A stretch of DNA of 41,279 nucleotides from a virus (taxonomy: Duplodnaviria > Caudoviricetes), in the IMG/VR virus record IMGVR_UViG_3300020281_000049, positions 1-41,279 of that record, one strand, 5' to 3'. The notes under the pieces are model-generated. The model made no database searches and was not told where the DNA came from. It worked only from the letters and a program-made list of their open reading frames with translations. The translations under genes were made by a program, and so were the position numbers. Position 1 is the first letter of the stretch. The number at the start of each line of letters is the position of its first letter. Shown here piece after piece: positions 2,518-39,328 of this stretch.

Positions 2518-3492
2518 ATGGCACATTTAGTTGAAACTATGGCGTATGCCGGTGAAGTCCCTTGGCACGGTTTAGGTACCAAGGTAGAAGATAATCTAAC
2601 CCCTCAAGAAATGATTGAGGCTGCAGGTTTAAATTGGACGGTATCAAGACGACCAGTCTTTGTACCTCAGGAGCCTGGCTATGATCACACTGAGGGCACA
2701 CTCACAACTACCGAGTTTGGTATGCTTGTGCGTGACTCTGACAATAGGATCTTAGGTCCTTGCGGCAGAAACTATATCCCTGCTCAGAACGAAGAGGTTT
2801 TTAGCTTTTTCAATAAGTTTGTAGAGTCAGGCGATATGACTATGGGCACAGCTGGTTCATTGGACAATGGCCGTCAGGTATGGGGTCTTGCTAATATAAA
2901 GCAAGGTTTCAAATTACCAGGTGGTGACGAGGTTCAAGGTCACTTGCTTATATCACACCCACATCAGTGGGGAAAATCCCTTACCATTATGTTCACTCCA
3001 GTCCGTGTCGTGTGTAACAACACATTGACTATGGCACTTGGGCAGCAAGGTGAGAGATTTAGAATGCCACACGTTAAGGCGTTCGATGCTGAGGTTGTTG
3101 CTGCAGCCGAGCAAGCATTAGGACTAGCTTCAGAGCAACTCGAGTCGTTCGAAGAGCAGTCTAAGTTCCTTGCTAGTAAGCAGTACAATGATGATCAATT
3201 TGATCGTTTTCTTGCTCAGCTTTTTCAACCAGCACTGATTGTTGACAACAAGGTGGATCGTACGCAATTCAATCGTACCTGTGAGAATGTACACGAGCTT
3301 GTGTATACTCAGCCAGGTGCCAAGATGAGCGAAGGTTCATGGTGGTCTGCTCTCAATGCTGTCACGTACTATGTAGATCATAAGGCTGGTCGTAACCGTG
3401 ACACTAGCCTGCAGTCTGCATGGTTTGGTCCACGAGCCGCAACTAAGCGTAAGGCTCTACAACTTGCCACGGAGATGGCGGAGGCTGCATAA
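2518..3492 (+). CDS. DUF932 / phage-plasmid-like (TIGR03299-type) protein
   Basis: Motifs MAH..ETMAY.GEVPWHGLG, AAGLNW, FTPVRVVCNNT, W.ALNAVT.Y.DH. Confidence 0.85.
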   Translation: MAHLVETMAYAGEVPWHGLGTKVEDNLTPQEMIEAAGLNWTVSRRPVFVPQEPGYDHTEGTLTTTEFGMLVRDSDNRILGPCGRNYIPAQNEEVFSFFNKFVESGDMTMGTAGSLDNGRQVWGLANIKQGFKLPGGDEVQGHLLISHPHQWGKSLTIMFTPVRVVCNNTLTMALGQQGERFRMPHVKAFDAEVVAAAEQALGLASEQLESFEEQSKFLASKQYNDDQFDRFLAQLFQPALIVDNKVDRTQFNRTCENVHELVYTQPGAKMSEGSWWSALNAVTYYVDHKAGRNRDTSLQSAWFGPRAATKRKALQLATEMAEAA

Positions 3493-3716
3493 TGCAAACT
3501 ACCTTCACTTTTGTGAAGTCATCAGACTCGTCCCTAGCCAAACAGGCTAGGGACATTCTTAATATTGTAGAAGCTAAAGGGTCAATAACAAAACAAGACC
3601 TGATACAGCAGATACAAGTTGACGTTAAATCGAAGCAAACTGCAGAGAGGCTGCTGTCATACTATAAGACAGCATTAATCTCTGACGGTTATATGGAAGA
3701 GAGGAAACATGGCTAA
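3492..3716 (+). CDS. Small hypothetical protein, possible winged-helix-like domain
   Basis: 74 aa ORF with TAATG coupling to the upstream gene; similar to the C-terminus of 1877..2407. Confidence 0.75.
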   Translation: MQTTFTFVKSSDSSLAKQARDILNIVEAKGSITKQDLIQQIQVDVKSKQTAERLLSYYKTALISDGYMEERKHG

Positions 3717-4548
3717 TGCTAGAGGAAAAAAGGTAGATACAACCTACCTTTCTATAGACAATGCCGAGGAGCGTGGGTTTCTACATAGAGACTATATCGC
3801 TCACTGTCTACGATGGTCACATGTTGTAAAGTATCTTGGCACAAGCCAAAGATATAAATCAGCACGTGTCCTCGATGTCGGCTGTGGCAAAGAGATGCCA
3901 CTATCGAAGCTGCTGCACTCATCACGTATGGGTACAGCGTGGTATGGCGCTGTCGATGTTGCACCACTGGTTACACCAGAGCAATTTCGTAATGCATCAT
4001 GGAAACCACATAAACTATGGTCTAAGACCGATGTATGCACATTGAAGCCAGACGATTTTGAGGCACCCCCTACAGCGATCGTCTGTTTTGAAGTTGCAGA
4101 ACATGTCGAGCCAGATCATTGTCGTCGTATGCTCGCTAAGTTTCATGAGCTACTCGAAGATGAGGGTCGTGTCTTTATCAGTACACCATGCTATGACGCC
4201 CATACCGGTGCTGCTGCAAACCATGTCAATGAGATGACGTACCAAGCATTTGGTGCTGCACTCGAAGATACTGGTTTCAGAGTCGAGGGTCATTGGGGCA
4301 CGTTTGCTAGTATGAAAGACTATAAAGACGAGCTCACGCCAGCACAACGTGAGGTATGGGATCAGTTACGTGACTATTATGACACTAACTACCTGTCCAC
4401 TGTGATGGCACCACTCGTACCGCAGCATAGTCGTAATGTGCTGTGGCAGTTAACCAAAGATCAATCATTGCCAAGACTATTTCCTAGTTTGAAAGATGTC
4501 GAAGGTATATGGGGATCATCAGAAGAATGGGAGAAACTATGTCCTTAA
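3709..4548 (+). CDS. Class I SAM-dependent methyltransferase (small-molecule / UbiG-like)
   Basis: Motif I VLDVGCG; IVCFEVAEHV; LLEDEGRVFISTP; no DPPY/NPPY or PCQ-ENV DNA-methyltransferase motifs. Confidence 0.85.
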   Translation: MANARGKKVDTTYLSIDNAEERGFLHRDYIAHCLRWSHVVKYLGTSQRYKSARVLDVGCGKEMPLSKLLHSSRMGTAWYGAVDVAPLVTPEQFRNASWKPHKLWSKTDVCTLKPDDFEAPPTAIVCFEVAEHVEPDHCRRMLAKFHELLEDEGRVFISTPCYDAHTGAAANHVNEMTYQAFGAALEDTGFRVEGHWGTFASMKDYKDELTPAQREVWDQLRDYYDTNYLSTVMAPLVPQHSRNVLWQLTKDQSLPRLFPSLKDVEGIWGSSEEWEKLCP

Positions 4549-4937
4549 CAAGTGACATACGTGAGTTCCATGAAAAGTTCGGGATGGAGTATGACGGGTT
4601 ACCTCGTAAGCTCTCTCCCGAGCTTCTAGAATTTCGCGTTAATTTTATAAAAGAAGAGTTGCTGGAATATTTGCAATCACACACATTGCACGACCAGCTT
4701 GATGCTCTTGTAGATTTAACCTATGTGATATTGGGCACAGCATATTTGCAAGGCTTTCCGTTTGAGGAAGCATGGTCAAGAGTGCATGCAGCCAATATGA
4801 AAAAAGTAAAAGGCCCATCAGAACGGTCAGACAAGTTTGATGTAATTAAACCAGAGGGATGGGAGCCACCAGATCTTACTGATCTATGTGGAGAACAAAT
4901 GGAGCTGTTTAATGATAATAATACTGGACGGTCCTGA
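4539..4937 (+). CDS. MazG-like / PRA-PH all-alpha NTP pyrophosphohydrolase
   Basis: FHEKFG, FIKEELLEY (EExxE), DALVDLTYV, VHAANMKK, KPEGWEPPDL. Confidence 0.88.
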   Translation: MSLTSDIREFHEKFGMEYDGLPRKLSPELLEFRVNFIKEELLEYLQSHTLHDQLDALVDLTYVILGTAYLQGFPFEEAWSRVHAANMKKVKGPSERSDKFDVIKPEGWEPPDLTDLCGEQMELFNDNNTGRS

Positions 4938-5898
4938 TGGTACTGGTAAAACTACGCTTGCTGAGCGTATGTGCACTGAGCTTAATGCTGAGTACCTGCA
5001 CCTTACATACCGATGGAAGGAACGGATCTTTGATTACCATACCGCTGCCATACGGTATGCTGCAAGAAAGCGTAGACCGATAGTCATCGATAGATGGTGG
5101 CCATCAGAAGCTGTATATGCCAAAGCATTTCGTGGCGGCAGTGACTGGCCCTTGCAAGGTCGTATGTGCGATCGTGTTGCTAAAAAGTTTGGCGTGATTT
5201 ACGTGTACTGCTTACCGGATGATGTACAGTCTGCAGTCGCAAACCACGCCGAGTTGAAGCAACAAAGGGAGGAAATGTATGAAGACATCGAAGCTGTTGC
5301 CGATCTTTATATTAAGCTATGGGACGGTGAAAGTACACATGAAGATAAGAACCAGTACATAGACCAAGTCATACGGCATGGCGGTATGGTTACACACCCT
5401 GATACAATCAAGTATACCATATCAGAGTGGGGTCATTGTATGGATCTATTTATCGAGCGTGTATGGGCACTTGCATCTGCATGGCGTCAGCTGCAGCTTC
5501 CTAAATTACTTGAGTATGATAATTGGAATATGCTTGGCCATGCTTCATGTGCAGAGTATCTAATTGTCGGCGAGCGTGTCAATCCTAAGTTTCGTGAATT
5601 GTACTGGCCTTTCTATGACTATGGCAACAGCAGTTTACACTTGACGCAAGCAATACATTCGCTTGAGCTCAAAGAGCATAACTTTATGTACGCTAATGCA
5701 TACAACCATGATGGATCACCTAACTGGCTGATTGATTATGTGATGCAGACATATAATAAAAAAATAATAACACTTGGTAAGCAGGCAGAAGACGCAGTCG
5801 CTCACCATACTATACATGCAGCCTTGCCGCATCCTTCGTATGCAAAGCGGTTCGGTAAAGTTGACATGGTGGAGGTAATGAAACATGCGATCTGTTAA
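4912..5898 (+). CDS. dNMP/thymidylate-kinase-like P-loop kinase fused to a C-terminal uracil-DNA-glycosylase-like domain
   Basis: IIILDGPDGTGKTT P-loop and VIDRWWPSE (TMK DR motif); C-terminal IVGER, YANA, IITLGKQA, LPHPSY (UDG-fold motifs). Confidence 0.82.
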   Translation: MIIILDGPDGTGKTTLAERMCTELNAEYLHLTYRWKERIFDYHTAAIRYAARKRRPIVIDRWWPSEAVYAKAFRGGSDWPLQGRMCDRVAKKFGVIYVYCLPDDVQSAVANHAELKQQREEMYEDIEAVADLYIKLWDGESTHEDKNQYIDQVIRHGGMVTHPDTIKYTISEWGHCMDLFIERVWALASAWRQLQLPKLLEYDNWNMLGHASCAEYLIVGERVNPKFRELYWPFYDYGNSSLHLTQAIHSLELKEHNFMYANAYNHDGSPNWLIDYVMQTYNKKIITLGKQAEDAVAHHTIHAALPHPSYAKRFGKVDMVEVMKHAIC

Positions 5899-6658
5899 TG
5901 CAGAATGGTATGCAGCACTTGATGACATCATTGCTCATGGTGCTAGCATAAAACCACGTGGCTTATCATGTCTTGAGTTATGTGGCTATCAAACCGTAGT
6001 TGATATGGAACACCCTATCTTGACTGTACCAGGCAGAAACATTGGCTATAAGTTTATGGCTGCTGAAGCTGCATGGATATTGTCAGGTGATAACCGTACC
6101 AGTACAATAACACCATATTCTCGTGAGATTGGTGGGTTCAGTGATGATGGTATCACTTATCATGGTGCGTATGGGCCCAAGATACGTGATCAGCTGCACT
6201 ATGTAGTTGACTGTCTTGGCAAAGATCCTGATACAAGACAAGCAGTAATAAATATTTGGCGTGAGAATCCGCCAGTAACCAAGGACGTGCCTTGCACGTT
6301 GTCTTTGCAGTGGGTGATACGGGAGGATACTATTCACTGCATCGACACAATGAGGTCATCTGATATATGGCTTGGCTGGCCTTATGATGTGTTTAATATG
6401 TCAATGATAACCCGTTACATTTTGTTGTATTTACGACAGGTGCATAGCAAGACTTATAAACTAGGTACATTAAGATTGACTGCCGGATCACAGCATTTGT
6501 ATACGATAAATCAGTCGGCTGTCATAAAGCTGCTGACTGAGACACGAGTTACAGACCATGTTGATTGGAGATTACCATTGTATGATCTTAGTGGACCTGA
6601 TGCGTTAACTAAATTTTTATGGGAGTGCGCAGAACATGGTACGCTCACGTCCCTGTAA
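5885..6658 (+). CDS. Thymidylate-synthase-fold enzyme, probable dCMP hydroxymethylase/methylase
   Basis: AEAAWILSG, DTRQAV, KDVPCT (catalytic Cys), MRSSDIWLGWPYD (Asp at the Asn177 specificity site), GSQHLY. Confidence 0.85.
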   Translation: MRSVNAEWYAALDDIIAHGASIKPRGLSCLELCGYQTVVDMEHPILTVPGRNIGYKFMAAEAAWILSGDNRTSTITPYSREIGGFSDDGITYHGAYGPKIRDQLHYVVDCLGKDPDTRQAVINIWRENPPVTKDVPCTLSLQWVIREDTIHCIDTMRSSDIWLGWPYDVFNMSMITRYILLYLRQVHSKTYKLGTLRLTAGSQHLYTINQSAVIKLLTETRVTDHVDWRLPLYDLSGPDALTKFLWECAEHGTLTSL

Positions 6659-7205
6659 GGATGAATATTTCCTCGCTATGGCTGTGCTTGTCGCAGCGCG
6701 TAGTACATGCAGCAGGCGTAGTGTCGGTTGTGTCTTGGTGGATAGTCGTAACCATGTTTTGGCTACTGGCTACAATGGTGTGGCTAGTGGTGTGGCCCAT
6801 TGTATTGACGAACCTTGCCCTGGCGCTGAGCTTCCTAGCGGGACTGGCCTCGATAAGTGCGAAGCCATTCATGCCGAACAAAATGCTATACTACAATGCA
6901 AGGACGTGGGAATTATTGAAACAGCGTATATCACGACAAGTCCGTGCCATACGTGTACGAAACTATTAATGAATACAGGCTGCAGCCGTATAGTCTTTCT
7001 CAAGGCGTATACGGATGTGAGTCCTAAAGAATTATGGAAAGGAGAGTGGATAGAGCATGGACCAATTAAGTATGTTTTTACCCAAAGCGAACTGGAAACC
7101 GCCAGCCGATCTACCAGACCTGAGCAAAGCAAAGGTAATATCATTGGACGTGGAAACAAGCGATCCAAACCTTCTAACCTCTGGTCCTGGTGGAGTAAGA
7201 AATGA
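6636..7205 (+). CDS. dCMP deaminase
   Basis: RSTC.RR.VGCVLV, TGYNG, HAEQNA and SPCHTC zinc motifs. Confidence 0.92.
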   Translation: MVRSRPCKDEYFLAMAVLVAARSTCSRRSVGCVLVDSRNHVLATGYNGVASGVAHCIDEPCPGAELPSGTGLDKCEAIHAEQNAILQCKDVGIIETAYITTSPCHTCTKLLMNTGCSRIVFLKAYTDVSPKELWKGEWIEHGPIKYVFTQSELETASRSTRPEQSKGNIIGRGNKRSKPSNLWSWWSKK

Positions 7206-8937
7206 CGGTAAACTCGTCGGGATCTCAGTATCAACGGACACTGGTTTTACAGGCTATTTCCCCATCGCTCACGAAGGAGGAGATAACCTTGACCGTAACA
7301 ATGTCCTCCGATGGGCACGCGATACCTTTGGAGGATCCCAAGATAAGGTTGGAGCAAACCTGCTCTACGATCTTGAATGGCTTAGATCAGAAGGGATACA
7401 AGTTAGTGGCAAGCTCAGAGATATACAAGTTGCCGAGCCCTTAATCAATGAGGAACGTGATGGCGGCTATAGTCTAAATAATCTTGCTAAGTATTATCTT
7501 AACGTAGAGAAAGATGAGAAGCTGTTGCGTGATGCAGCAAAGTCTTTTGGTGTAGATCCAAAGGGTGGTTTATGGAAGCTGCCTGCTAGGTATGTTGGCC
7601 CGTATGCAGAGGCTGATGCACGTCTTCCACTAGAGATATATGCTAAGCAAGAGAAGATCCTCAAAGAGCAAGGCTTATGGGATATATTCGAGCTCGAGTC
7701 TAGATTACTCAATGTTACACTAGACATGAGATTCAAGGGCGTACGTATTGACATAGATAAAGCTGAAATACTAAATGAAGATTGTTTAAGCAAGGAAGCC
7801 AAGCTGCTGACTGCCATACGCGATGAGTGTGGTCATGTAGTCGAGTGTTGGTCTGCTGATGACTTGTCAAAAGCATTTGATAAATTAAATATATGGTATC
7901 CACGTACACAGAAAGGCAATCCATCTTTTACTAGTGACTGGTTAAACGTACATGAGCATGAGTTTGCTAAGAAGGTAGCTGAGTGGCGTAAACTAAATAA
8001 GATGAGACGTGACTTTATCGAAGGTATATGTCTCAAGCAGCAGCACAATGGCAGGATACATGCACAGTTCCATGCCTTGCGTAAAGATGCTGATGGTACT
8101 CGCACTGGTAGATTTAGTTCATCGACTCCTAACCTGCAGCAGATACCTGCACGTGATCCATACTGGGGACCATTGATACGTGGTTTATTCTTGCCTGACG
8201 AAGGGCAGCAATGGGCTTGCCTTGATTACAGTCAACAGGAACCTAGAGTCTTGATGCATTATGCTGCCTTGCGTGGCTTGAAAGGTGCACAAGAAGCAGT
8301 TGATCAGTACAACAAAGATCCTGATACTGACTTCCACCAGATTGTAGCTGACATGGCAGGCATCGAACGTAAGCAAGCAAAGACTATTAATCTTGGTATG
8401 TTCTATGGCATGGGTATATACAAGCTGAGTACTGAATTAGGTATGCAGCAGTTTGAAGCCAAGCCTATCTTCGAGCAGTATCATAGTCGTGTACCATTTG
8501 TGCGTCAGCTAGCTCATGAGTGTACACGTGCTGCCAACAGCAAGGGATATATAAAGACTTTACTAGGCAGGCACAGACATTTCAATATGTTTGAACCAGC
8601 TGATAGTAGAAACACATGGCCAAACAGAGAGACACCATTGAACAGGGAAGCTGCAATGGAAGTATGGCAAGGCAGACCGTTACGTCGGTCGTTTACCCAT
8701 AAAGCTCTCAATGCTTTGATACAAGGCAGCAGTGCGGACATGACAAAGAAAGCTATGCTAGACTTATATGATGAAGGCGTAGTTGCACATATTACGGTAC
8801 ATGATGAGCTTGATTTTTCCGTCACAGACAGTGTACAAGCGAACAAATACCGTGATATAATGGAAGACTGCGTGGACCTTAAGTTACCACTCAAGGTCGA
8901 CGTAGAATTAGGCCCCACATGGGGTGATATAAAATAG
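7057..8937 (+). CDS. polA: Family A DNA polymerase with 3'-5' exonuclease domain
   Basis: Exo DVET, YD and YAEAD; TGRFSS..PNLQQIP; motif A DYSQQEPR; motif B RKQAKTINLGMFYG; motif C VHDEL. Confidence 0.96.
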   Translation: MDQLSMFLPKANWKPPADLPDLSKAKVISLDVETSDPNLLTSGPGGVRNDGKLVGISVSTDTGFTGYFPIAHEGGDNLDRNNVLRWARDTFGGSQDKVGANLLYDLEWLRSEGIQVSGKLRDIQVAEPLINEERDGGYSLNNLAKYYLNVEKDEKLLRDAAKSFGVDPKGGLWKLPARYVGPYAEADARLPLEIYAKQEKILKEQGLWDIFELESRLLNVTLDMRFKGVRIDIDKAEILNEDCLSKEAKLLTAIRDECGHVVECWSADDLSKAFDKLNIWYPRTQKGNPSFTSDWLNVHEHEFAKKVAEWRKLNKMRRDFIEGICLKQQHNGRIHAQFHALRKDADGTRTGRFSSSTPNLQQIPARDPYWGPLIRGLFLPDEGQQWACLDYSQQEPRVLMHYAALRGLKGAQEAVDQYNKDPDTDFHQIVADMAGIERKQAKTINLGMFYGMGIYKLSTELGMQQFEAKPIFEQYHSRVPFVRQLAHECTRAANSKGYIKTLLGRHRHFNMFEPADSRNTWPNRETPLNREAAMEVWQGRPLRRSFTHKALNALIQGSSADMTKKAMLDLYDEGVVAHITVHDELDFSVTDSVQANKYRDIMEDCVDLKLPLKVDVELGPTWGDIK

Positions 8938-17434: not shown

Positions 17435-17890
17435 TCACTCAACTAAACCCTCTTTGGGAATTTTTGTTTTGACTGCATCCCATTCGGTAACTAGGTTATC
17501 TAGATCCGCCGGCAGTTTTTCACCACCTGCCTTTTTCTCTTTAAAATACTTAAGAATAGAGTCTAGCTGATCCGTGACATCAGGATATAACATAGCCCTT
17601 TCCATCGCATGTCGATTATTGCCAGGTGATGCTTCAAACAACGCTTTCATTTTTGCGTCTTTACTTAAATCTACTACTTTACAATCTATTTCTTTGTCTT
17701 GCTCTGGTATCTCATAGCCGTCCATAACTATACCAAAGTGTAATCCTTCTTCTGGATTGTAGCCAAGATGAATAAAAGATATTTGTGCACCTGGTGATGA
17801 CTTGTCATCAGGCTCTTTACCAGGACCAGGATCAGGAGCTATAAAGCATTTTGTCTCGTGATCTTTATATGTTATATATTGTTTTGCCAT
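17435..17890 (-). CDS. Hypothetical tail-fibre-associated protein
   Basis: R...YPDVTDQLD...W.AVK.KIPK C-terminal motif; coupled to the RCC1 gene. Confidence 0.7.
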   Translation of the reverse strand: MAKQYITYKDHETKCFIAPDPGPGKEPDDKSSPGAQISFIHLGYNPEEGLHFGIVMDGYEIPEQDKEIDCKVVDLSKDAKMKALFEASPGNNRHAMERAMLYPDVTDQLDSILKYFKEKKAGGEKLPADLDNLVTEWDAVKTKIPKEGLVE

Positions 17891-19737
17891 TATGCATTTC
17901 CGTTTAATTGACCATTCATTAGGGTCGGGTTATCATTAACATACCAACTGTTGTTATCCCAAGAGTGGTAGTAACCTGTGTGATACAGAGCACCATCTTC
18001 AAATAAGTAGTAGATAGTACCGCCATCTGAGCCGCTATCACCACACCACGTCTGTACAACCTTGCCATGTTTTTCGTATGGTAGGTGTGGCGTAGTCCAG
18101 TAATAATAGTTGCTGCCTTGTCTATATCTTTGCCATTGGTTATTACGGCCTGTAACCCAGACAGTACCGTCATTCAATAAAGCTACTAGGTAGTTAGTAG
18201 ATCCCCAGCCACCAGATCGTATGTCAACACAATAACGCTTTGCGCTAAACAACTGTTTACCGTTCCAGGTACTAGCCCAATCAAATAAAATTTCATAAAC
18301 TCCGTTATAAGTACTGCTTGACCTGTTGCTGCCAAGCTGACCATAACCAGAGTAACCTGCACCCCACAGTTTATTATCTTCTGTTCTTACATATATCTGA
18401 CCATACTGACCGCCAGTTGCCCAAACGTCTTTGGCCAAACCTTTAGATCCTGAGGGTCCAAAGTGCGAGTCTAGAGCTGTGTGGTTATTTGTACCTGATG
18501 TAGATCCTGACATGATTTGTCCATAGCCAGAGTAACCGCCAGTCGATACTGTACCATCATCATACAAGTAAATTGAATGACATACATCACCATTGGCAGA
18601 TGCTGCAATCTTTATACACTTCTTACCGACGTTAGTTGTACCTGAACCATTATGGCCACAAGGCACAAAGTATGTTTGATTATTACCATGAGCATATTGC
18701 ATCTGATAATATGAATTACGTCCTGCTGCCCAAACTAATCCATCTTCGTCAATATACCAAACAGTACCATATTGGCCATTTGTCTCTTTAACATAGACAG
18801 CGTCCTCTACATACTGTACTCCTGACTCTCCGCTCTTAGGACCTCGTGCACATTTTCTAGGGCCATACGTATAGGAATTGCTGCTTGTACTATTGTTAAC
18901 GCCAACTTGACCATAGCCATTATAACCCCAGCCCCACAGTGAACCATCATCGCATAAGGCATGAAATGACAAAGCTGAATCTGATTGTTCGCCAGAGCTA
19001 CTAAACTGAATTACTTTTCTTGGCTTATCAGTAACAGTGTTCCAGTAAAGTCTTTCGTAGTGATTAGCTGACGCGCCAGGGTAAGTATAACTCCAGCCAA
19101 CTACACGTAAAGATGCTCGGTTCGAGGTGGCTTGATCTCCTACCTGTCCGTGTCCATTATAACCATTAGCCCACAGAATGCCATTAGCAGTTAGGAACAT
19201 ATTGGTATATCCCATGTATATACCAACAATCCGCATGCCGGTCTTACCTTCAGCCATGTGTTCACGTAAGTCATAGCCAGTCCAAGTGCTAGGAATATCA
19301 TCTTTTGATATATTTCCAATCATAATCTGACGTAGTACATCTCCGTTGATACTTACCCATTGCATCGGCGAGTGTACACTAGCACCGTTATAGTCCCATG
19401 AGCTATGGTTACCAGCACCTTTATCTGAGTATTGATTAACACCCATCATGGCAATAGAATAGCCGTCATTAACTACAAAGGCATATTGTGAGTCAGCGCC
19501 CTGCTGATCATTAGTTATAGTGTGACGCCAGTTCTTACTACTTCGTTTGTTAATGTTGTGGACGATATTATATAGGCTTTTACTCTTAGCTGCTTGATCA
19601 CCATACAGTGGCCTGCTTCCAGGAAGAAGCTGGACTTTCATAAATTGACCGCCGCCTCCTGATGAAGGAACAAAGCTGCTTCCTCCAGCGGAAGCAACTT
19701 TTTTAGGAAGGTCGACTGTTATGGTGTTGTTAGCCAT
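17890..19737 (-). CDS. RCC1-like repeat beta-propeller, probable tail / receptor-binding protein
   Basis: Repeats GYNGHGQVG, GYNGYGQVG, GRNSYYQ, GYSGYGQI, GYSGYGQLG, GRNNQWQ. Confidence 0.85.
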   Translation of the reverse strand: MANNTITVDLPKKVASAGGSSFVPSSGGGGQFMKVQLLPGSRPLYGDQAAKSKSLYNIVHNINKRSSKNWRHTITNDQQGADSQYAFVVNDGYSIAMMGVNQYSDKGAGNHSSWDYNGASVHSPMQWVSINGDVLRQIMIGNISKDDIPSTWTGYDLREHMAEGKTGMRIVGIYMGYTNMFLTANGILWANGYNGHGQVGDQATSNRASLRVVGWSYTYPGASANHYERLYWNTVTDKPRKVIQFSSSGEQSDSALSFHALCDDGSLWGWGYNGYGQVGVNNSTSSNSYTYGPRKCARGPKSGESGVQYVEDAVYVKETNGQYGTVWYIDEDGLVWAAGRNSYYQMQYAHGNNQTYFVPCGHNGSGTTNVGKKCIKIAASANGDVCHSIYLYDDGTVSTGGYSGYGQIMSGSTSGTNNHTALDSHFGPSGSKGLAKDVWATGGQYGQIYVRTEDNKLWGAGYSGYGQLGSNRSSSTYNGVYEILFDWASTWNGKQLFSAKRYCVDIRSGGWGSTNYLVALLNDGTVWVTGRNNQWQRYRQGSNYYYWTTPHLPYEKHGKVVQTWCGDSGSDGGTIYYLFEDGALYHTGYYHSWDNNSWYVNDNPTLMNGQLNGNA

Positions 19738-21549: not shown

Positions 21550-24065
21550 TATCTTACTCCTTCGAACAGCCTATCGCCGCCACCGTATGGAATTGCTCTA
21601 GAGGGTGGCATAAAGAAACGCTGATCATTTTCAGTCATTATACGCTGTTCTAAACGAGAAAGATACCCCGGATTTACAAATTCTTGTAACTGGTACAAAA
21701 ATAAGTAATCTATGGCCATTCTAGTATAGAAAACATTAATAAACGGGGTGTTATCTTTTGCTAATTTTATTAGGTTAGCAGCAACATCTTCCCCGTTACG
21801 AGCCCTTGTCCATAGTTCTGCTACCGCGTCAATCTGACCAAAGGTAGGTCCTGCCAAGGTTGACAAGAAACTACGACCAAATCTATTATATTCACCAAAT
21901 AAGAAGTCACCATATATACCTAGACCTCCACCTTGTACCATGGCTGCTAATGCTGTTGAATAACTAAACTCTCTTGGCGATCTGCCTTTTAGCATATCCT
22001 TAGCCATCATAGCGCCGTAACCAAACACAGTACTCATAACTAGTAGTTGAGTAATTCCTGTTATATCAGCTTTACCATTAGCTTGCCCGTATACTTCTCG
22101 TCCTAAACCTCTACGTACAATAGTAACAGGGAATGATTTAAACTGCATAAGCAGCCTATACATCTCACCCGTTGCTGTACCGGCTACAGATCCCTGGTTC
22201 ATGATCGCTCGTTCTCTAGCGCCAGGCATTGGAATGCCATAATCAGCACGATCAATATAAAATGAGTCAAGCATAGTCATTAGATCATTTTTAGCATCTG
22301 CTATAGTTCTAGCATTAAATACACTCTTGCCTTTAGATTTCATGTAGCCTTTGACTATATCATCGCTAATATCTTCTAGGCCCTCACTAACCATAAAGTT
22401 GCCTTGATTATTACCAGCATCTTTTACTGCATGGTTTCTGTATAGTTCCCACTCAAGATCTTCAATACCATATTGCTTTAATACATTCTGAAGCCTAGGT
22501 CCAAGCTGCTTGTAACTAAGATTAGCGTTGTCTGCTAGATTAGCACTCATCATTAATGCCATACCAGTACGATGAGAATCGTTCCACCAGCTCATTAAGT
22601 TTATCTTAAAAAACTTTTGCTGAGCTTTTGCTGCCATACCAGGTAATTGATCGTTAGCATGAAACCTGCTCATTAGATCACCTGTGATTCCATCAAAGCC
22701 AACACCCAATGCTCTTGCTATCTGTCTTTGTTCCTTATTTCCTCGGCCGCGGAATAAATTCCTAAAGGCATTTGTATAACCTGACATTAGGCCTTTACCT
22801 TGATACCTTAACTCCGCTGCCTGATAAGGAATATCAGTTATAGCTGAAATGGTTGCACCACCTAGTTTTGATAGGTTTGCGATAACTCTAGTAATAGCAC
22901 CAATACGCGCTAGATTTGGACTAGCAATCATACGAGCAGAGCCGTCTAGCTCTTGATATAAGTTTTTAATTTTTTGACTTTTAAATAAATCTGACTGCTT
23001 TGTATCACCTTTCTTAATTGTACGATCTCGATATTCAGCTACTAAGTCGTCTAGCATTGACTGTGGATTAGTACCAAGATTTCTCATTAAAGCTGTATTA
23101 TGAGCGTGGTGCTGCAAACCATTAATAATACCTTCTCTAAGATCTCCCGTTCCTACTGCTCTGTTATATTCCATAAATGAAGCAGAGTCTTTAAAATGCA
23201 ATAGTCTTTCAGCACTAGCTTTTTTACCTAGATTAGCGTAACCTTTAAAACCATTTAAGTGCATTGCTGTATCGTCAGCAGCGCCAGCAGCTTTTCTATG
23301 TATACCTGCTGCTAAACCTCTATAAGCACCTTGTAAAAACTTTTTAGGATCAGCACCCTTAAAAGTCTTTTTATCAAGTAGTGGCATGATAAATTCAATC
23401 CACTCATCTTCGCCCATCTTCCTGATTTTAATCATGTCGTGGCTTTGACGCATAATATAACCAGGATATGACTTAATATAAGATCCTGCTAAATTAGAAT
23501 TCTTAACGGCTAGCTCTTGTATAGCATGTATCTTTTCAGCAATACGTCTTGCTGCAGCATTCTTAGTTACGCCTGGATTACCGCCTGGTTTAAGTTCCCA
23601 CAATTCAGCAGCAATGTCATCATCAAACTTTCCGCCTTTCATAAACAAGCGAAGATCGCCGTGCTCATTATCTAGATCTTTAATTATCTTGCCAATGTAT
23701 TTATTTGCAAGAGACTTGCCTTGTGTATCAATACTTAATTTAGACTTGTGTGAAGACTCAAGAGTACCACCAAGTAACGACATAATACCTAAGTGAGGAT
23801 TATCAAACTTATCTAAAAAATTACGGGCCCTTGCTTTAGCCAAGGCATTAATAATCTTATTACGCTTTTCTATTTTAGCAGCAAGCATAGAGTCACTTAA
23901 CTGTTGAGTCAAGTGCGTCATAAGCTCCTGATCTACATTATCTGCATTTTTAACATTTGTAATAAACTCATCGATTTCTTCCAGCATCTTCATTGCTGCG
24001 TCATCATCGATAGTTCCGCTCTTATTAGCTTTCTTAATAACAGCGATACATTTTTGTATACTCAT
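21549..24065 (-). CDS. Internal virion (ejection) protein
   Basis: Start MSIQKC with ATGA overlap; C-terminal QFKSFP, QGGGLGIYGDFLF and NPGYLSR motifs; position before the tail fibre. Confidence 0.8.
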   Translation of the reverse strand: MSIQKCIAVIKKANKSGTIDDDAAMKMLEEIDEFITNVKNADNVDQELMTHLTQQLSDSMLAAKIEKRNKIINALAKARARNFLDKFDNPHLGIMSLLGGTLESSHKSKLSIDTQGKSLANKYIGKIIKDLDNEHGDLRLFMKGGKFDDDIAAELWELKPGGNPGVTKNAAARRIAEKIHAIQELAVKNSNLAGSYIKSYPGYIMRQSHDMIKIRKMGEDEWIEFIMPLLDKKTFKGADPKKFLQGAYRGLAAGIHRKAAGAADDTAMHLNGFKGYANLGKKASAERLLHFKDSASFMEYNRAVGTGDLREGIINGLQHHAHNTALMRNLGTNPQSMLDDLVAEYRDRTIKKGDTKQSDLFKSQKIKNLYQELDGSARMIASPNLARIGAITRVIANLSKLGGATISAITDIPYQAAELRYQGKGLMSGYTNAFRNLFRGRGNKEQRQIARALGVGFDGITGDLMSRFHANDQLPGMAAKAQQKFFKINLMSWWNDSHRTGMALMMSANLADNANLSYKQLGPRLQNVLKQYGIEDLEWELYRNHAVKDAGNNQGNFMVSEGLEDISDDIVKGYMKSKGKSVFNARTIADAKNDLMTMLDSFYIDRADYGIPMPGARERAIMNQGSVAGTATGEMYRLLMQFKSFPVTIVRRGLGREVYGQANGKADITGITQLLVMSTVFGYGAMMAKDMLKGRSPREFSYSTALAAMVQGGGLGIYGDFLFGEYNRFGRSFLSTLAGPTFGQIDAVAELWTRARNGEDVAANLIKLAKDNTPFINVFYTRMAIDYLFLYQLQEFVNPGYLSRLEQRIMTENDQRFFMPPSRAIPYGGGDRLFEGVR

Positions 24066-27000
24066 GCGGCACCTCTTACGCAAACAGCTGCAGCTTTAGC
24101 GGCTTCGTATATATCGTTAACTTGCGCTACTGCGTCGTCTGCTTCTTTATTTATATTATCAAGTTCTTTTGTAACTGCTTTAATATATTTAGGATCCATG
24201 TTAGGCATCTCAGCATTTATCTGCTCTACAAGATCATTGATAGCTTGTTCTTGCTCGGCCATATCTTTCGATACATTAGGCAGCAAAGTTTCTTTTGTCT
24301 GATTAGGATTAGTTTGTAGATCTATATCAGCATCGTCTATATCAGCGGTAGAATTAGATTTATTAGCGTTGTACTTTTTAGCAATCTGTATAGACTGCTG
24401 CATCGGTACTTTTGCAGGTAATTTTTCTCCTGGCAGCATAGCATCTACTTCAACAAAACTGCCTTTATTAGTATTAACTACACTTTTTACGACAAAGGTA
24501 GTATCATGAGGTAGAATTACTTCTGACTCACTTTTACCAAATGACCAATGTTTATTTTCACCAGCATATAAAGCTGGCATACCTTTTTTAAGGTTAATTT
24601 TTAATTTAACATCACTGCTGCTGCCAAACGAAAAAGCCTTACCTCTATATAATCCTGTAGATAGGAAACCGCTTAATTTAAACTGGCCTCCTATCATCAT
24701 TTTAGCAGTACCAGCATCTGTTGCTGGATTACCTTTTAGACTTAAACCATTGACACCGTTCAAGGCGGTATAAGGGGTACCCCCACGCCAAACACTAATT
24801 TCTTGAGGTAATGTGTTCTTCTTAATAGCCGCATCTAGTATCCCCGTGTACTTGTTAAGGACCTCTTTTGTTTGTGCCGGTGTTGGTTCATCAATGCCTA
24901 CATATTTACCAACCATTTTTGCATAGCCATGAGCTTCATTAGGGCTCATTTTTCCACGCAGCCAGTTATTCATCCATGCATAACTGCTGCCAGTATAGTT
25001 TTTAAGTATTTTACCTTCTTGTACTGTTAGTTTTGTTTCTTGCGCGTCATTCATTTTAGTCAGTGCTTTTTTAGCAGATGACAAGCTGTTAGCTACAATC
25101 GTACCTTTTTTAGTTGACGTAGCTTGTTGTGTACGTAAAAAGTCAGTGCTGTATTCTGTTAATGCCTGACGTCTATTTGTAATTAAGGATTTTAATTTAG
25201 TTGCATTTTCAGGTGTAAAATCTAGAATATCAATAATTGCATTTATTTCTGATTGATCTGTTTCAAATATTCTTGCTGCAGCAAACTGGGCTTTCTTTAT
25301 AAACTCTGCTTGTGATAAACCAGTAGCTTCAAATACTTTAAATGTAGTAGGATTCTTTTTAGGATCTAGCATAGACTTTATTTCATCTATAGCCATCTCA
25401 TTAATATTTTTAGTTCCGCCTTGAGCTCTAAATATTAACGCCCCACCTGGATCGATACGTATAACATTGCCATTTGGCATTTGCATAATATTAAAGTTAG
25501 GTGCATTACCGACAACATCCCAGTTACCTAGGAACATATCGACAATTAAGTCATCAGCAAACTGCTGCTTAACTTCAGCAGGTAATTTAGCAAAATCGTC
25601 TGGCGTAATCATCTTAGCGCCAGGTACTATCTTAGAGGCTATACCTACAATTTCACCGTTTGAATTACCAACTAGCTTTGGCTCAGGGAATGCAACACCA
25701 AACATTCTATATAGTGTAGCAGCTAAAAACTCGTTCTTAGCAGCCTGTATATCTTTAGGATACTTAACATAATACTGTTGGCCTGTAGCAGCATCTGTAA
25801 AGAAGCCACCTTTTTGTGTACCAGCTTGATCTCCTGTTTGCTGTAAATTTGTATCTAAAAGTTGTTCATCAAATTGTGGTGATTTATTTTCTGGTAAAAA
25901 TTCACCTTCGTCAAATTTAGTCATAGCTTGATCAACGGCATTCTTACCAGATGGCATAGAGTCGCTGAATGCTATAATCTTAGGATCGCCAGAAAATAAT
26001 TTTACTGCTTCGCTAGGTGCTGCCACTACCACATTATTCTGGTTCATCTTTGGATTAAATACGGCATTGTCTATATCAATGAGGTGTGTAATCTCACCTT
26101 CATCAAATTTTACAGAGGCCTTATATTTAATATCAGATGCAGCCATATCTACGCCATGCATCAGCATAGACATGTGTGCCTTTTCTCCAAGCTCTAGTGG
26201 ATCACCTGCTTTACTTCCTATCTGTTCTTCATCAAAAAGACGTAACGGTCCTTCTTCACCTCGAACAAGGATAAAGTCACCATTTTGATTTTTGATACGA
26301 AATGCAATTTTGTTTTTAGCACCCGCTTTAGTAGCAGCTTCAACTGCTTCTTGATATTCAGTGCTTTGCGCTAAGGCATTTTTTAATTTAACGCCACTTA
26401 ACGGTGCAGCTTTTTCTCCTGCTCTTACTAATTCTAAAGACTCAGTTGTATTTGCATGCGGCTTATATTCTGCCGTTGCCCCTTTAACAACTGGTCCATC
26501 TGAGTCACCTTGATTAACACGCTGTACTGGCGAGTTAGCATCGCTTCCAGGTGCTGCCGGTGCATCAGGATCATTAGTTGGTGTCTTTACTTGTACATCA
26601 TCTCCATGGTGCACGATAGGACTAACCTCGACACTATCACCATTTGCAGCTTGTCTAACTGCTGTATTAAATGCTTTACCGTGACGTTTAGATCTTACAT
26701 ACTTGATACCATCTACTACGCTACCGCCCACAACATGCAGTCCGCCACCTAATACAGTACCAAATGTTATATTCATAAATGATTGAGCTAACCCGTAATC
26801 AGCTTGCTCTTGTGTAGCAGCACCATAAATTAAAGGCTCAACTGCGACTGATCCATAAAAACCAGCCATACCACCTGTAACGGCTCTTGTACCTAATTTG
26901 GATCCGGTAAGGCCTAAAGCACCGACCACTCTAGCACCGCCAAGGGGAGGAATAAAAAACAGTGGGATACTAACTGGATCGACTAAAGCCATGCCAAGCT

Positions 27001-27583
27001 CTAGGCCCATACCTTTCCAAAACTGCGCCCCATAAGCATTGTCAAGAGCGTAGTTAAACTTTATTTCTTGTTCTTTTCTTTCTTTTAAAACGTGAGCTTC
27101 TAAATTAGAAATAGGCTCTGAAAATTTTAGTTGGCCATCAATACCATATACTTCGTTAGCTTCTTCTGGCTCTAATATTTTTACATCTGGGTTAGCATTA
27201 AAGAAATCTGGATACTTTTCTTTTAGTGCATCTGTAGTAATACCAATATTTTTAATCCCTGAACCTGGCTCTGGCATACCAGCATAAGGAGCTACACCCA
27301 TAAGTCCTGGTGTACCGCCCATTGGCATTGGCTGATATGACTGAGCATAAGCGCCGCTGTTTGCCCAATTGTCATATTCAGATCTTTCCTCAGCTGTAGC
27401 ACCGGCAAAAGATCTAATATTAGATATTTCACCTAGACGGTCTAATGAATTAAAACCTGTATAACGCCAGCCTCTATCTTTTGCTTGTTCCGTAACTGTA
27501 TCACCAGTAGCAGCAAGTAAATCCAAGCCCATTATATTTGTAAATTCTGGGTTATATGATTTATTATATTTTATAAAACTCAT
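24062..27583 (-). CDS. Internal virion protein carrying HipA/PI3K-like kinase and ADP-ribosyltransferase domains
   Basis: Hydrophobic ejection-protein N-terminus; kinase YYVK, KNE, GNWD, RIDPG; ART YT..Y..MN.WLR, VWRG, FLST, ESEVILP. Confidence 0.82.
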   Translation of the reverse strand: MSFIKYNKSYNPEFTNIMGLDLLAATGDTVTEQAKDRGWRYTGFNSLDRLGEISNIRSFAGATAEERSEYDNWANSGAYAQSYQPMPMGGTPGLMGVAPYAGMPEPGSGIKNIGITTDALKEKYPDFFNANPDVKILEPEEANEVYGIDGQLKFSEPISNLEAHVLKERKEQEIKFNYALDNAYGAQFWKGMGLELGMALVDPVSIPLFFIPPLGGARVVGALGLTGSKLGTRAVTGGMAGFYGSVAVEPLIYGAATQEQADYGLAQSFMNITFGTVLGGGLHVVGGSVVDGIKYVRSKRHGKAFNTAVRQAANGDSVEVSPIVHHGDDVQVKTPTNDPDAPAAPGSDANSPVQRVNQGDSDGPVVKGATAEYKPHANTTESLELVRAGEKAAPLSGVKLKNALAQSTEYQEAVEAATKAGAKNKIAFRIKNQNGDFILVRGEEGPLRLFDEEQIGSKAGDPLELGEKAHMSMLMHGVDMAASDIKYKASVKFDEGEITHLIDIDNAVFNPKMNQNNVVVAAPSEAVKLFSGDPKIIAFSDSMPSGKNAVDQAMTKFDEGEFLPENKSPQFDEQLLDTNLQQTGDQAGTQKGGFFTDAATGQQYYVKYPKDIQAAKNEFLAATLYRMFGVAFPEPKLVGNSNGEIVGIASKIVPGAKMITPDDFAKLPAEVKQQFADDLIVDMFLGNWDVVGNAPNFNIMQMPNGNVIRIDPGGALIFRAQGGTKNINEMAIDEIKSMLDPKKNPTTFKVFEATGLSQAEFIKKAQFAAARIFETDQSEINAIIDILDFTPENATKLKSLITNRRQALTEYSTDFLRTQQATSTKKGTIVANSLSSAKKALTKMNDAQETKLTVQEGKILKNYTGSSYAWMNNWLRGKMSPNEAHGYAKMVGKYVGIDEPTPAQTKEVLNKYTGILDAAIKKNTLPQEISVWRGGTPYTALNGVNGLSLKGNPATDAGTAKMMIGGQFKLSGFLSTGLYRGKAFSFGSSSDVKLKINLKKGMPALYAGENKHWSFGKSESEVILPHDTTFVVKSVVNTNKGSFVEVDAMLPGEKLPAKVPMQQSIQIAKKYNANKSNSTADIDDADIDLQTNPNQTKETLLPNVSKDMAEQEQAINDLVEQINAEMPNMDPKYIKAVTKELDNINKEADDAVAQVNDIYEAAKAAAVCVRGAA

Positions 27584-38860: not shown

Positions 38861-39328
38861 TTACCTCCTTTTTACAAACGTGTGCCCTACGGTATCATAC
38901 CCTAGAGCGTTGTACAGTTGCCTCGTCTCCTCAGTTTTTACGCCTGTCGACGAAGCGGGCCGTATTTCCTTCGCACCGTTTGCAAATGCCCAATCTTCAA
39001 ATTCTTTTATCAATCTAGCTGCAGCTATCCCGCCGCGTCTATCTTGACTTACGAATAATAAAAGATCATTCGCTACTAGGTCCTTACCGAAATAATAACT
39101 CGAAATGAGTCCGACGTACATCGCAAAAATTTTATTTTCTGCGGATGTAACTAATTTACAAAAATATACCTCTGGATTAGCTATCCACGTATGGCCCATC
39201 GCTGTAATAACTTCGGGATCAAAGTCAAGGTGGCTATAACTAGACTCAGCATGCGCTTCTTCTGCTAGCATTAGCACTTGATCCATATCGCTAAGTTTAA
39301 GATCCCTAATAATTACCGAAGATGGCAT
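38861..39328 (-). CDS. GNAT-family acetyltransferase
   Basis: IIRD...D, LLFVSQDRRGG (acetyl-CoA motif A), LYNALGY. Confidence 0.8.
   Translation of the reverse strand: MPSSVIIRDLKLSDMDQVLMLAEEAHAESSYSHLDFDPEVITAMGHTWIANPEVYFCKLVTSAENKIFAMYVGLISSYYFGKDLVANDLLLFVSQDRRGGIAAARLIKEFEDWAFANGAKEIRPASSTGVKTEETRQLYNALGYDTVGHTFVKRR

Follow-up and report, generated by a model that had tools for sequence, protein, structure and literature searches.

Gene linkage and active-site residues suggest 5-methoxymethylcytosine as a candidate DNA base in a widespread group of phages

Phage T4 replaces cytosine with hydroxymethylcytosine (hmC) through the combined functions of gp56, gp42, gp1 and cd. Elsewhere, a carbamoyltransferase was reported to modify the hydroxyl of hmC, both in single-stranded DNA and in hm-dCTP, yielding 5-carbamoyloxymethylcytosine (Yang et al. 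2021, PMC8670742). Xanthomonas phage Xp15 resembles that system in gene layout, with the order carbamoyltransferase, PRA-PH/MazG, kinase, synthase, deaminase. The phages Xp12 and PaMx74 replace cytosine with 5-methylcytosine (5mC) and have a synthase with Asp at position 177, a 5mC-selective deaminase and a pyrophosphatase in one run, with a dihydrofolate reductase (DHFR) gene beside the synthase. A thymidylate synthase (TS), deaminase, PRA-PH and PolA also make up the leading neighborhood reported for modified-cytosine contigs, and five of the seven synthases tested made 5-methyldeoxycytidine (5mdC) (Yang et al., bioRxiv 10.1101/2024.12.05.627091). Here we analyze a related six-gene cassette at positions 3709–8937 of IMG/VR record IMGVR_UViG_3300020281_000049. 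This record, referred to below as the window, is a complete phage genome of 41,279 bases (CheckV: 100% complete), and the first gene of its cassette encodes an S-adenosylmethionine (SAM)-dependent methyltransferase. The DNA of this phage very probably carries a modified cytosine of some kind, and the identity we favor, with somewhat better than even confidence, is 5-methoxymethylcytosine in place of cytosine.

All six cassette reading frames lie on the plus strand and overlap head to tail, with a ribosome-binding-like site of the GGAG/AGGA type upstream of every start. The class I SAM methyltransferase (3709..4548; 279 aa; PF13489; a predicted 5-hydroxymethyl O-methyltransferase) overlaps by 10 nt with a MazG-like/PRA-PH pyrophosphatase (4539..4937; 132 aa; PF01503, E 6e-11; phrog_671 and phrog_2144). 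After a 26-nt overlap comes a P-loop kinase fused to a uracil-DNA glycosylase (UDG) fold (4912..5898; 328 aa; kinase, residues 1–190; UDG fold, residues 193–327), and after one of 14 nt a TS-fold enzyme (5885..6658; 257 aa; PF00303; a predicted dCMP hydroxymethylase). A zinc-dependent dCMP-type deaminase (6636..7205; 189 aa; PF00383; 23-nt overlap) and a family A DNA polymerase with a 3'-5' exonuclease domain (PolA, 7057..8937; 626 aa; PF00476 and PF01612; 149-nt overlap) complete the run. A sequence-only reading had described six genes in one run here, and the coordinates, overlaps and Pfam families bear this out. Because the same gene order recurs in Stenotrophomonas phage AXL3, Pseudoxanthomonas phage PW916 and many IMG/VR contigs, the arrangement appears to be more than chance.

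The same reading regarded the cassette as a miniature version of the T4 pathway. This holds insofar as gp56, gp42, gp1 and cd all have counterparts in the window, the synthase equals gp42 at six diagnostic positions, and in some other genomes with the methyltransferase the synthase is of the gp42 clade. On the other hand, the window synthase belongs to another subclade, its kinase is TMK/YorR-like and UDG-fused, the polymerase is PolA rather than family B, and there is no T4-type glucosyltransferase. A closer analogue is the Xp15/MetaGPA type of cassette, which shares the window's gene order, a DCTMDD-type synthase (see below) and a modifier with the hmC hydroxyl as its predicted target, and which has a carbamoyltransferase in the slot occupied by the methyltransferase; the product of the window's cassette would accordingly differ in being a methyl ether. 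The core of synthase, kinase, pyrophosphatase, deaminase and PolA is thus an already published neighborhood, and only the methyl-capping step would be new.

To compare active sites, the window synthase was aligned with E. coli ThyA, T4 gp42 and the enzymes of Xp12, PaMx74, M6, Xp15, AXL3, HTVC200P and S28C10, and the residues at E. coli ThyA positions 143/146/147/165/169/177 were taken as a signature. The window reads DCTMDD (D134, C137, T138, M156, D160 and D168), identical at all six positions to T4 gp42 and Xp15. The corresponding residues are NCPLDD in the Xp12 and PaMx74 enzymes, which make 5mC, LCHQDN in E. coli ThyA and DCNNDN in the hydroxymethyluracil (hmU) synthase of M6. E61 and C137 occupy the positions of the catalytic Glu58 and Cys146, and S158 and R118 correspond to Ser167 and Arg126, a pair reported to select deoxyribose (Zhao et al. 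2016, PMC5175136). According to the rules of Lee et al. (2026, PMC13326640), Asp177 selects dCMP and an acidic residue at position 143 goes with a non-methyl product. The synthase had been taken for an Asp-type TS, and D168 indeed stands at the position of E. coli N177. Given the DCTMDD signature, these published rules and the Ser167/Arg126 pair, and with Asp177, an acidic residue 143, Cys146 and Glu58 all in place as in T4 gp42, the window synthase is predicted to make 5-hydroxymethyl-dCMP.

The methyltransferase family conserves H32, R35, a DxGxG motif (56–60), E128, E131, H132, an STP motif (158–160) and H172. Among these, R35, E128, E131, H132, S158-T159-P160 and H172 are invariant in 120/120 aligned homologues and are kept in AXL3 gp31. 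In sequence alignment, R35, E128, E131, H132 and H172 supply the E-x-x-E-H ligands, distal His and motif-X Arg of the small-RNA methyltransferase Hen1, and the metal-site residues match one-to-one with those of a bacterial Hen1 scoring above the TIGR04074 cut-off. The window enzyme itself, at 15.9 bits against that cut-off of 340, falls outside the Hen1 family and does not have the full Hen1 domain architecture. In plant HEN1, E796, E799, H800 and H860 keep Mg2+ bound at the hydroxyl groups of the substrate (PMC10781085), and R701 with the EhhEH and TPN motifs was predicted to form the active site (PMC1397878). The likeness extends to the fold and to the HxxR, DxGxG, ExxEH, (S/T)TP and distal HxxE motifs, all of which align. 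The differences are an identity of 18%, the lack of an N-terminal Hen1 domain or Pnkp partner, about 70 extra C-terminal residues and a dNTP-synthesis context. No Pfam or NCBIfam match to DNA C5 or N4/N6 methyltransferases was obtained, and the PC/ENV and NPPY-type motifs are absent from the conserved columns. Judged from these residues, the enzyme is likely to methylate a hydroxyl with the help of a metal; as the 5-CH2OH group is the only new hydroxyl made by the cassette, we read it as the methyl target.

Structure comparison was less discriminating. A model of the cluster representative (E175D relative to the window; pLDDT 93) has a class I fold without an extra nucleic-acid-binding domain, and the pI of the protein is 5.95 (family median 6.0). 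Searched against 48,161 chains, it matched ChlM (Z 18.6), 4htf, a CmoM-like E. coli enzyme (Z 17.7), HEN1 (3htx; Z 17.3, rmsd 2.7, 185 residues aligned) and an N-methyltransferase (Z 17.2). We take ChlM and the CmoM-like enzyme to be carboxyl methyltransferases, and because the top Z values are tied, the chemistry cannot be read from the fold alone. Foldseek against viral models returned one true family member and otherwise generic methyltransferases, and the ESM Atlas contained virus-only clusters with automatic names. The neighboring genes of the nearest cellular relatives (our loci L135–L137) gave no clear substrate.

The sequence-only reading had proposed a gene-neighborhood test of whether the methyltransferase co-occurs with an Asp-type TS, and the linkage proved tight. 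The methyltransferase family is virus-specific: relatives numbered 1,237 among clustered proteins, five records in a GenBank phage set and 224 matches in IMG/VR, and carriers include podo-, sipho- and T4-like backbones. It is almost absent from prokaryotes, with only 11 loci in 185,579 genomes, namely seven true members on short assembly contigs and four remote ones. Among 106 IMG/VR loci, drawn from the top 80 matches of each of two scans, 85 contained a synthase, of which 82 had the DCTMDD signature and three were cut by the contig end; all 82 full-length partners are therefore of this type. The 21 loci lacking a synthase all had less than 6 kb on at least one side, and every locus with 6 kb on both sides had one (37/37); at 90% identity, the count was 44 of 52 clusters. 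A search of 47 whole records, chosen to favor long contigs, found PF00303 in 37, including 25/25 of those at least 90% complete, and the ten misses were 7–61% complete.

Partner synthases fall into four subclades: the window clade, an Xp15-like group, one further type, and sequences that cluster with T4 gp42 at 100% support. This grouping comes from a quick tree of 62 sequences with long branches that was used only for the gp42 grouping and for the existence of several subclades. At loci L029–L035, the methyltransferase is 61–63% identical to that of the window while the synthase is only 24–26% identical, and gene order varies, the synthase directly preceding the methyltransferase in L058 and L113. 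Together, these identities, the four subclades and the varied order argue that the methyltransferase follows the hm-dC product rather than one partner protein. The reverse link is looser: from the best 80 of 474 synthase matches, 48 of the 61 window-clade loci with 4 kb upstream carried the methyltransferase (32/42 clusters). Seven of the 13 loci without it were mapped and have the layout of T7-like pelagiphages with no modifier gene, as in HTVC200P. At one locus (L191), a different small methyltransferase stands in place of the cassette enzyme.

Genes within the cassette do not all evolve at the same pace. In the close relatives L009, L011 and L012, the methyltransferase and PolA are 88–90% and 81–85% identical to those of the window, the synthase only 55–60% and the UDG half 38–58%; by this sequence comparison, synthase and UDG half turn over faster than their neighbors. 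We also noted a related T7-like phage, uvMED S28C10 (L097:5417–7438), with a MazG-kinase-synthase-deaminase run whose VCCFDD synthase is a predicted 5mC producer. Although the synthase type differs, the deaminases of this phage and the window share 62% identity, which implies that synthases are swapped within the cassette.

Searches for other modifiers of hmC were negative within the families covered. As the sequence-only reading had stated for the window, no glycosyltransferase was found among its 47 reading frames scanned against Pfam, and none of the 40 carrier records, the window included, matched the T4 alpha- or beta-glucosyltransferase profiles, which found the T4 control. Carbamoyltransferase (PF02543) was likewise absent from the window's Pfam scan and from 39 carrier records, with the Xp15 control found. 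The GT1 and GT2 profiles also gave 0/39, a weak result since they missed T4's own glucosyltransferases as a control, and the T4-specific profiles were added for this reason. The suggestion that methyltransferase and glycosyltransferases exclude one another is in line with the absence of matches to all five families tested, carbamoyltransferase included, in 39–40 genomes.

The relatives in culture provide a further line of comparison. AXL3 (gp27–31) and PW916 carry five cassette genes in the window's order; their synthase is 50% and their methyltransferase 30% identical to those of the window, with the metal-site residues kept, and they differ in being siphoviruses with ThyX. As AXL3 encodes this separate ThyX, it does not depend on its ThyA-fold gene for dTMP. 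The AXL3 genome contains 13 KpnI, 14 Eam1105I and 21 PdmI sites and a single XbaI site, along with 100–133 sites for the hmC-tolerant enzymes HpyCH4III, Hpy188I and BtsCI; we take PdmI/XmnI and Eam1105I/AhdI to be isoschizomer pairs. McCutcheon et al. (PMC7504290) reported that only two of 37 enzymes cut AXL3 DNA, both at A/T-only sites, and left the modification unexplained; KpnI, Eam1105I, PdmI and XbaI all failed. Flodman et al. (PMC7653180) found that KpnI cuts the 5mC DNA of Xp12 completely and AhdI cuts it partly; for XmnI and XbaI, they saw partial digestion of T4gt DNA, which contains plain hmC, and none of glucosylated T4 DNA. The failure of KpnI and Eam1105I on AXL3 therefore argues against 5mC in this phage. 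The failure of PdmI and XbaI gives a weak hint of capped hmC, with plain hmC fitting imperfectly.

Several other products of the synthase must be weighed, and the published residue rules disfavor all of them: dTMP, 5mC, 5-hydroxycytosine and ribonucleotides. The AXL3 (PMC7504290) and PW916 (PMC9414467) papers annotate the cluster as dTMP synthesis, and an ordinary supply module for canonical DNA, in which the deaminase makes dUMP, the synthase dTMP and the kinase dTDP, would agree with the presence of a deaminase and of a UDG-fold domain. Canonical ThyA and dUMP hydroxymethylases have Asn177, however, which in the window is Asp, with H147 and L143 further changed to Thr and Asp, and AXL3 combines its ThyX with restriction-resistant DNA; this reading is accordingly given hardly any weight. 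Just as improbable is a small-molecule route like that to bacimethrin, in which hm-CMP would be formed, its base released by the glycosylase fold and the free base methylated to a thiamin antivitamin. A thymidylate synthase homologue and a methyltransferase do occur together in bacimethrin clusters (10.1101/2025.04.17.649140), and the best PDB sequence match of the window synthase is the CMP hydroxymethylase MilA (E 2e-19). But MilA and BcmA use Ala176 and Lys133 for ribose where the window has the deoxy-type Ser and Arg, the genes are firmly joined with those for a dNMP kinase and PolA, and a methyltransferase family so scarce in prokaryote genomes is not what this route would lead one to expect. 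Only marginally less remote is 5mC replacement of the Xp12 type, with the synthase making 5-methyl-dCMP, the deaminase supplying dTTP from it and the methyltransferase incidental. Neighborhoods of the same type did give 5mdC with most of the synthases tested (10.1101/2024.12.05.627091), and in S28C10 a deaminase resembling that of the window adjoins a V143/D177 synthase. Against this, 5-methyl-dCMP synthases combine a non-acidic residue 143 and C-P at 146–147 with an adjoining DHFR, none of which the window has, a DHFR profile that found the Xp12 control matched 0/39 methyltransferase-carrying records, and KpnI separates Xp12 from AXL3 DNA. A slightly better, though still poor, chance attaches to a dCMP hydroxylase making 5-hydroxy-dCMP, which the methyltransferase would turn into 5-methoxy-dC. 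Such synthases share the acidic residue 143 and D177 (PMC13326640), a phenol-like 5-OH beside N4 would suit a metal-dependent O-methyltransferase, and UbiG is among the profile matches of the methyltransferase. Yet all tested 5-hydroxy-dCMP synthases, of the RB69 gp48 type, are marked by Asn169 (Lee et al. 2026, PMC13326640), and Asp stands there in the window enzyme and in each of the 82 full-length partners. Of the two products named by the sequence-only reading, 5-methoxymethyl-dC thus stays the best guess, 5-methoxy-dC loses favor, and the broader claim of a C5-modified cytosine is well supported.

A more serious alternative, doubtful but well ahead of those above, accepts hmC in the DNA and lets the methyltransferase act elsewhere: at N4 or N3, on an hm-dUMP by-product, on a sugar added by an unrecognized transferase or, in the manner of Hen1, on the ends of RNA. 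The N-, C- and carboxyl methyltransferases among the fold neighbors at tied Z would allow this, as would a Hen1 likeness that extends to H32 and R35, the sugar-nucleotide genes adjoining the synthase-methyltransferase pair in L058, and the use of the same synthase clade by T7-like pelagiphages that have no modifier. However, an RNA or otherwise unrelated target leaves unexplained why the enzyme is linked to hydroxymethylases of four subclades but not to any synthase of the 5mC or hmU type. The conserved columns also lack an NPPY-type amino-methyltransferase motif, the cutting of AXL3 DNA at A/T-only sites makes T look unblocked (PMC7504290), and no transferase of the five tested families was found in carriers. 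Several observations do weigh against methylation of hmC itself. The Hen1 metal binds two vicinal hydroxyls, which hm-dC does not have. Fold matches are unspecific, with ChlM and the CmoM-like enzyme tying with or beating HEN1 and N- and C-methyltransferases within 1–2 Z; Foldseek against the PDB gave only generic class I matches at 10–20% identity, with HEN1 absent among the matches listed. The E-x-x-E-H...STP...H motif also occurs in uncharacterized bacterial methyltransferases with unrelated neighbors. Given the failed GT1/GT2 control, divergent transferases can hide, and in L058 the synthase-methyltransferase pair is flanked by cupin, cytidylyltransferase, UDP-glucose dehydrogenase and epimerase genes. 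The 13 of 61 synthase loci without the methyltransferase show that the gene is dispensable for this synthase clade. In the window, palindromic 6-mers gave no modification signal (observed/expected 0.85 with C/G and 0.88 for A/T-only). Finally, the comparison with AXL3 sets two studies side by side that differ in isoschizomers and digestion times, and concerns a phage whose methyltransferase is only 30% identical to that of the window.

Taken with these points, 5-methoxymethylcytosine remains our preferred reading, and the cassette could work as follows. The MazG-like enzyme, from its family and position, would convert dCTP to dCMP, and the TS-fold enzyme, with its gp42-identical active site, would use methylene-tetrahydrofolate to make hm-dCMP, a reaction for which DHFR is neither needed nor present. 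A divalent metal held by E128, E131, H132 and H172 of the methyltransferase would then activate the 5-CH2OH group for transfer of the SAM methyl to the hydroxymethyl oxygen, as suggested by the Hen1-like site and the linkage; methylation of the free nucleotide seems modestly more likely than methylation of DNA. The kinase and host NDP kinase would raise the modified nucleotide to the triphosphate for incorporation by PolA, while the deaminase would turn dCMP into dUMP for dTMP synthesis by host ThyA and the UDG-fold domain would remove U or deaminated modified C. The methyl cap may hide the hydroxyl read by hmC-recognizing nucleases, much like the glucose of T4 or the carbamoyl group of Xp15-type phages. 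On balance, and by a narrow measure, we favor the more general proposal that a widespread, virus-specific offshoot of the Hen1 type caps hmC, that many unrelated marine, freshwater and soil phages, AXL3 and PW916 included, use 5-methoxymethylcytosine genome-wide, and that the fused UDG fold is the matching repair enzyme.

If true, this would name a specific natural DNA base not yet reported, together with its enzyme, in phages already in culture. It would add a third, sugar-free way to hide hmC, account for the unexplained restriction resistance of AXL3 and, given the size of the family and the spread of backbones, mean that aquatic phages commonly counter restriction in this way. Combined with SAM analogues, an O-methyltransferase specific for hmC would also offer a tool for labeling 5hmC in mammalian DNA without a sugar. 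A search of the open-access literature turned up neither 5-methoxymethylcytosine in phage DNA nor a function for this methyltransferase. One paper lists O-methyltransferases near other phage modification genes (PMC13229309).

In the model of the kinase-UDG protein (pLDDT 95.6), the kinase half resembles thymidylate kinases (Z 13.5, rmsd 3.1, 163 aligned) and the UDG half the family-4 UDG 1ui0 (Z 12.7, rmsd 2.5, 132 aligned), so that the proposed dNMP kinase-UDG fusion is confirmed by the folds of both halves. The UDG half had no Pfam match in the window protein, and a PDB-sequence profile search also missed it. Across 95 homologues, G219 (94/95), N261 (91/95), H306 (87/95) and P307 (94/95) are conserved; we take these to be motif A (G-E/D), the central Asn and motif B (HP) of UDGs, which with the fold place the domain in the family 4-like part of the UDG superfamily. 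In methyltransferase loci, 39 of 59 kinase reading frames are long and have the C-terminal HP motif. The kinase is predicted to phosphorylate modified dCMP, and the UDG fold to excise U or deaminated modified C. From its family, the MazG-like enzyme is a probable dCTPase (and dUTPase) that would remove unmodified dCTP while feeding dCMP to the synthase. The deaminase, 61% identical to that of Xp15, is predicted to divert dCMP to dUMP for the host thymidylate synthase, in keeping with the absence of ThyX from the window's Pfam scan. Its C-terminal stretch of about 45 aa, which overlaps the PolA start, varies in relatives, whose lengths are 146–210 aa. PolA scores 330 bits with the DpoZ model, above its generic PolI model scores; a DpoZ/Z-genome interpretation was rejected, the score being below the cut-off of 500 and the genome having no PurZ match.

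Variants of the cassette were also encountered. T7-like pelagiphages, among them the cultured HTVC200P (L003, 6481–7759) and HTVC119P, pair a kinase gene with one for a DCTMDD synthase and lack a modifier (further loci: L150, L161, L171, L179, L200, L203 and L207), and plain hmC genomes are predicted for these SAR11 phages. T4-like contigs with UvsX, DnaB and ThyX (L058:284–4752; also L052, L053 and L073) combine a gp42-clade synthase with the methyltransferase and a deaminase, set among the cupin and sugar-nucleotide genes named above for L058, and a sugar-plus-methyl variant is possible in these contigs. A homologue of C5 cytosine DNA methylases (PF00145) occurs in three hm-dC cassettes (L116:8867–9901, L124:9135–10184 and L191:4984–6033), directly after the methyltransferase in L116. 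It keeps the NPPC motif, no ENV motif was found in it, and its presence is odd in genomes predicted to be without plain cytosine; L124 adds a TylF-type O-methyltransferase. At L113:5966–9392 and L004:13784–14272, a Nudix hydrolase replaces MazG and the UDG-like gene stands alone rather than being fused to the kinase. The stand-alone UDG-like gene of ct3Et533 gave no significant BLAST match to the window's UDG half.

In the rest of the window, portal, capsid and tail genes of T7/P22-like type lie on the minus strand, and the plus strand carries a replication arm resembling that of Pam3; no terminal repeat of at least 15 nt was found in the window. A 74-aa reading frame without a family (3492..3716, plus strand) overlaps the methyltransferase start by 8 nt and lies just upstream of it in many podovirus relatives; together with a DUF932 gene (2518–3492), it is probably on the same transcript as the cassette. 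On the minus strand, an RCC1-repeat protein is encoded in the tail region (17890–19737) and a GNAT acetyltransferase between the terminase and portal genes (38861–39328). The virion module includes a protein of 1,173 aa (24062–27583, minus strand) with an ADP-ribosyltransferase domain (PF03496) and an Alt-like PHROG match, which is probably an injected host-takeover enzyme.

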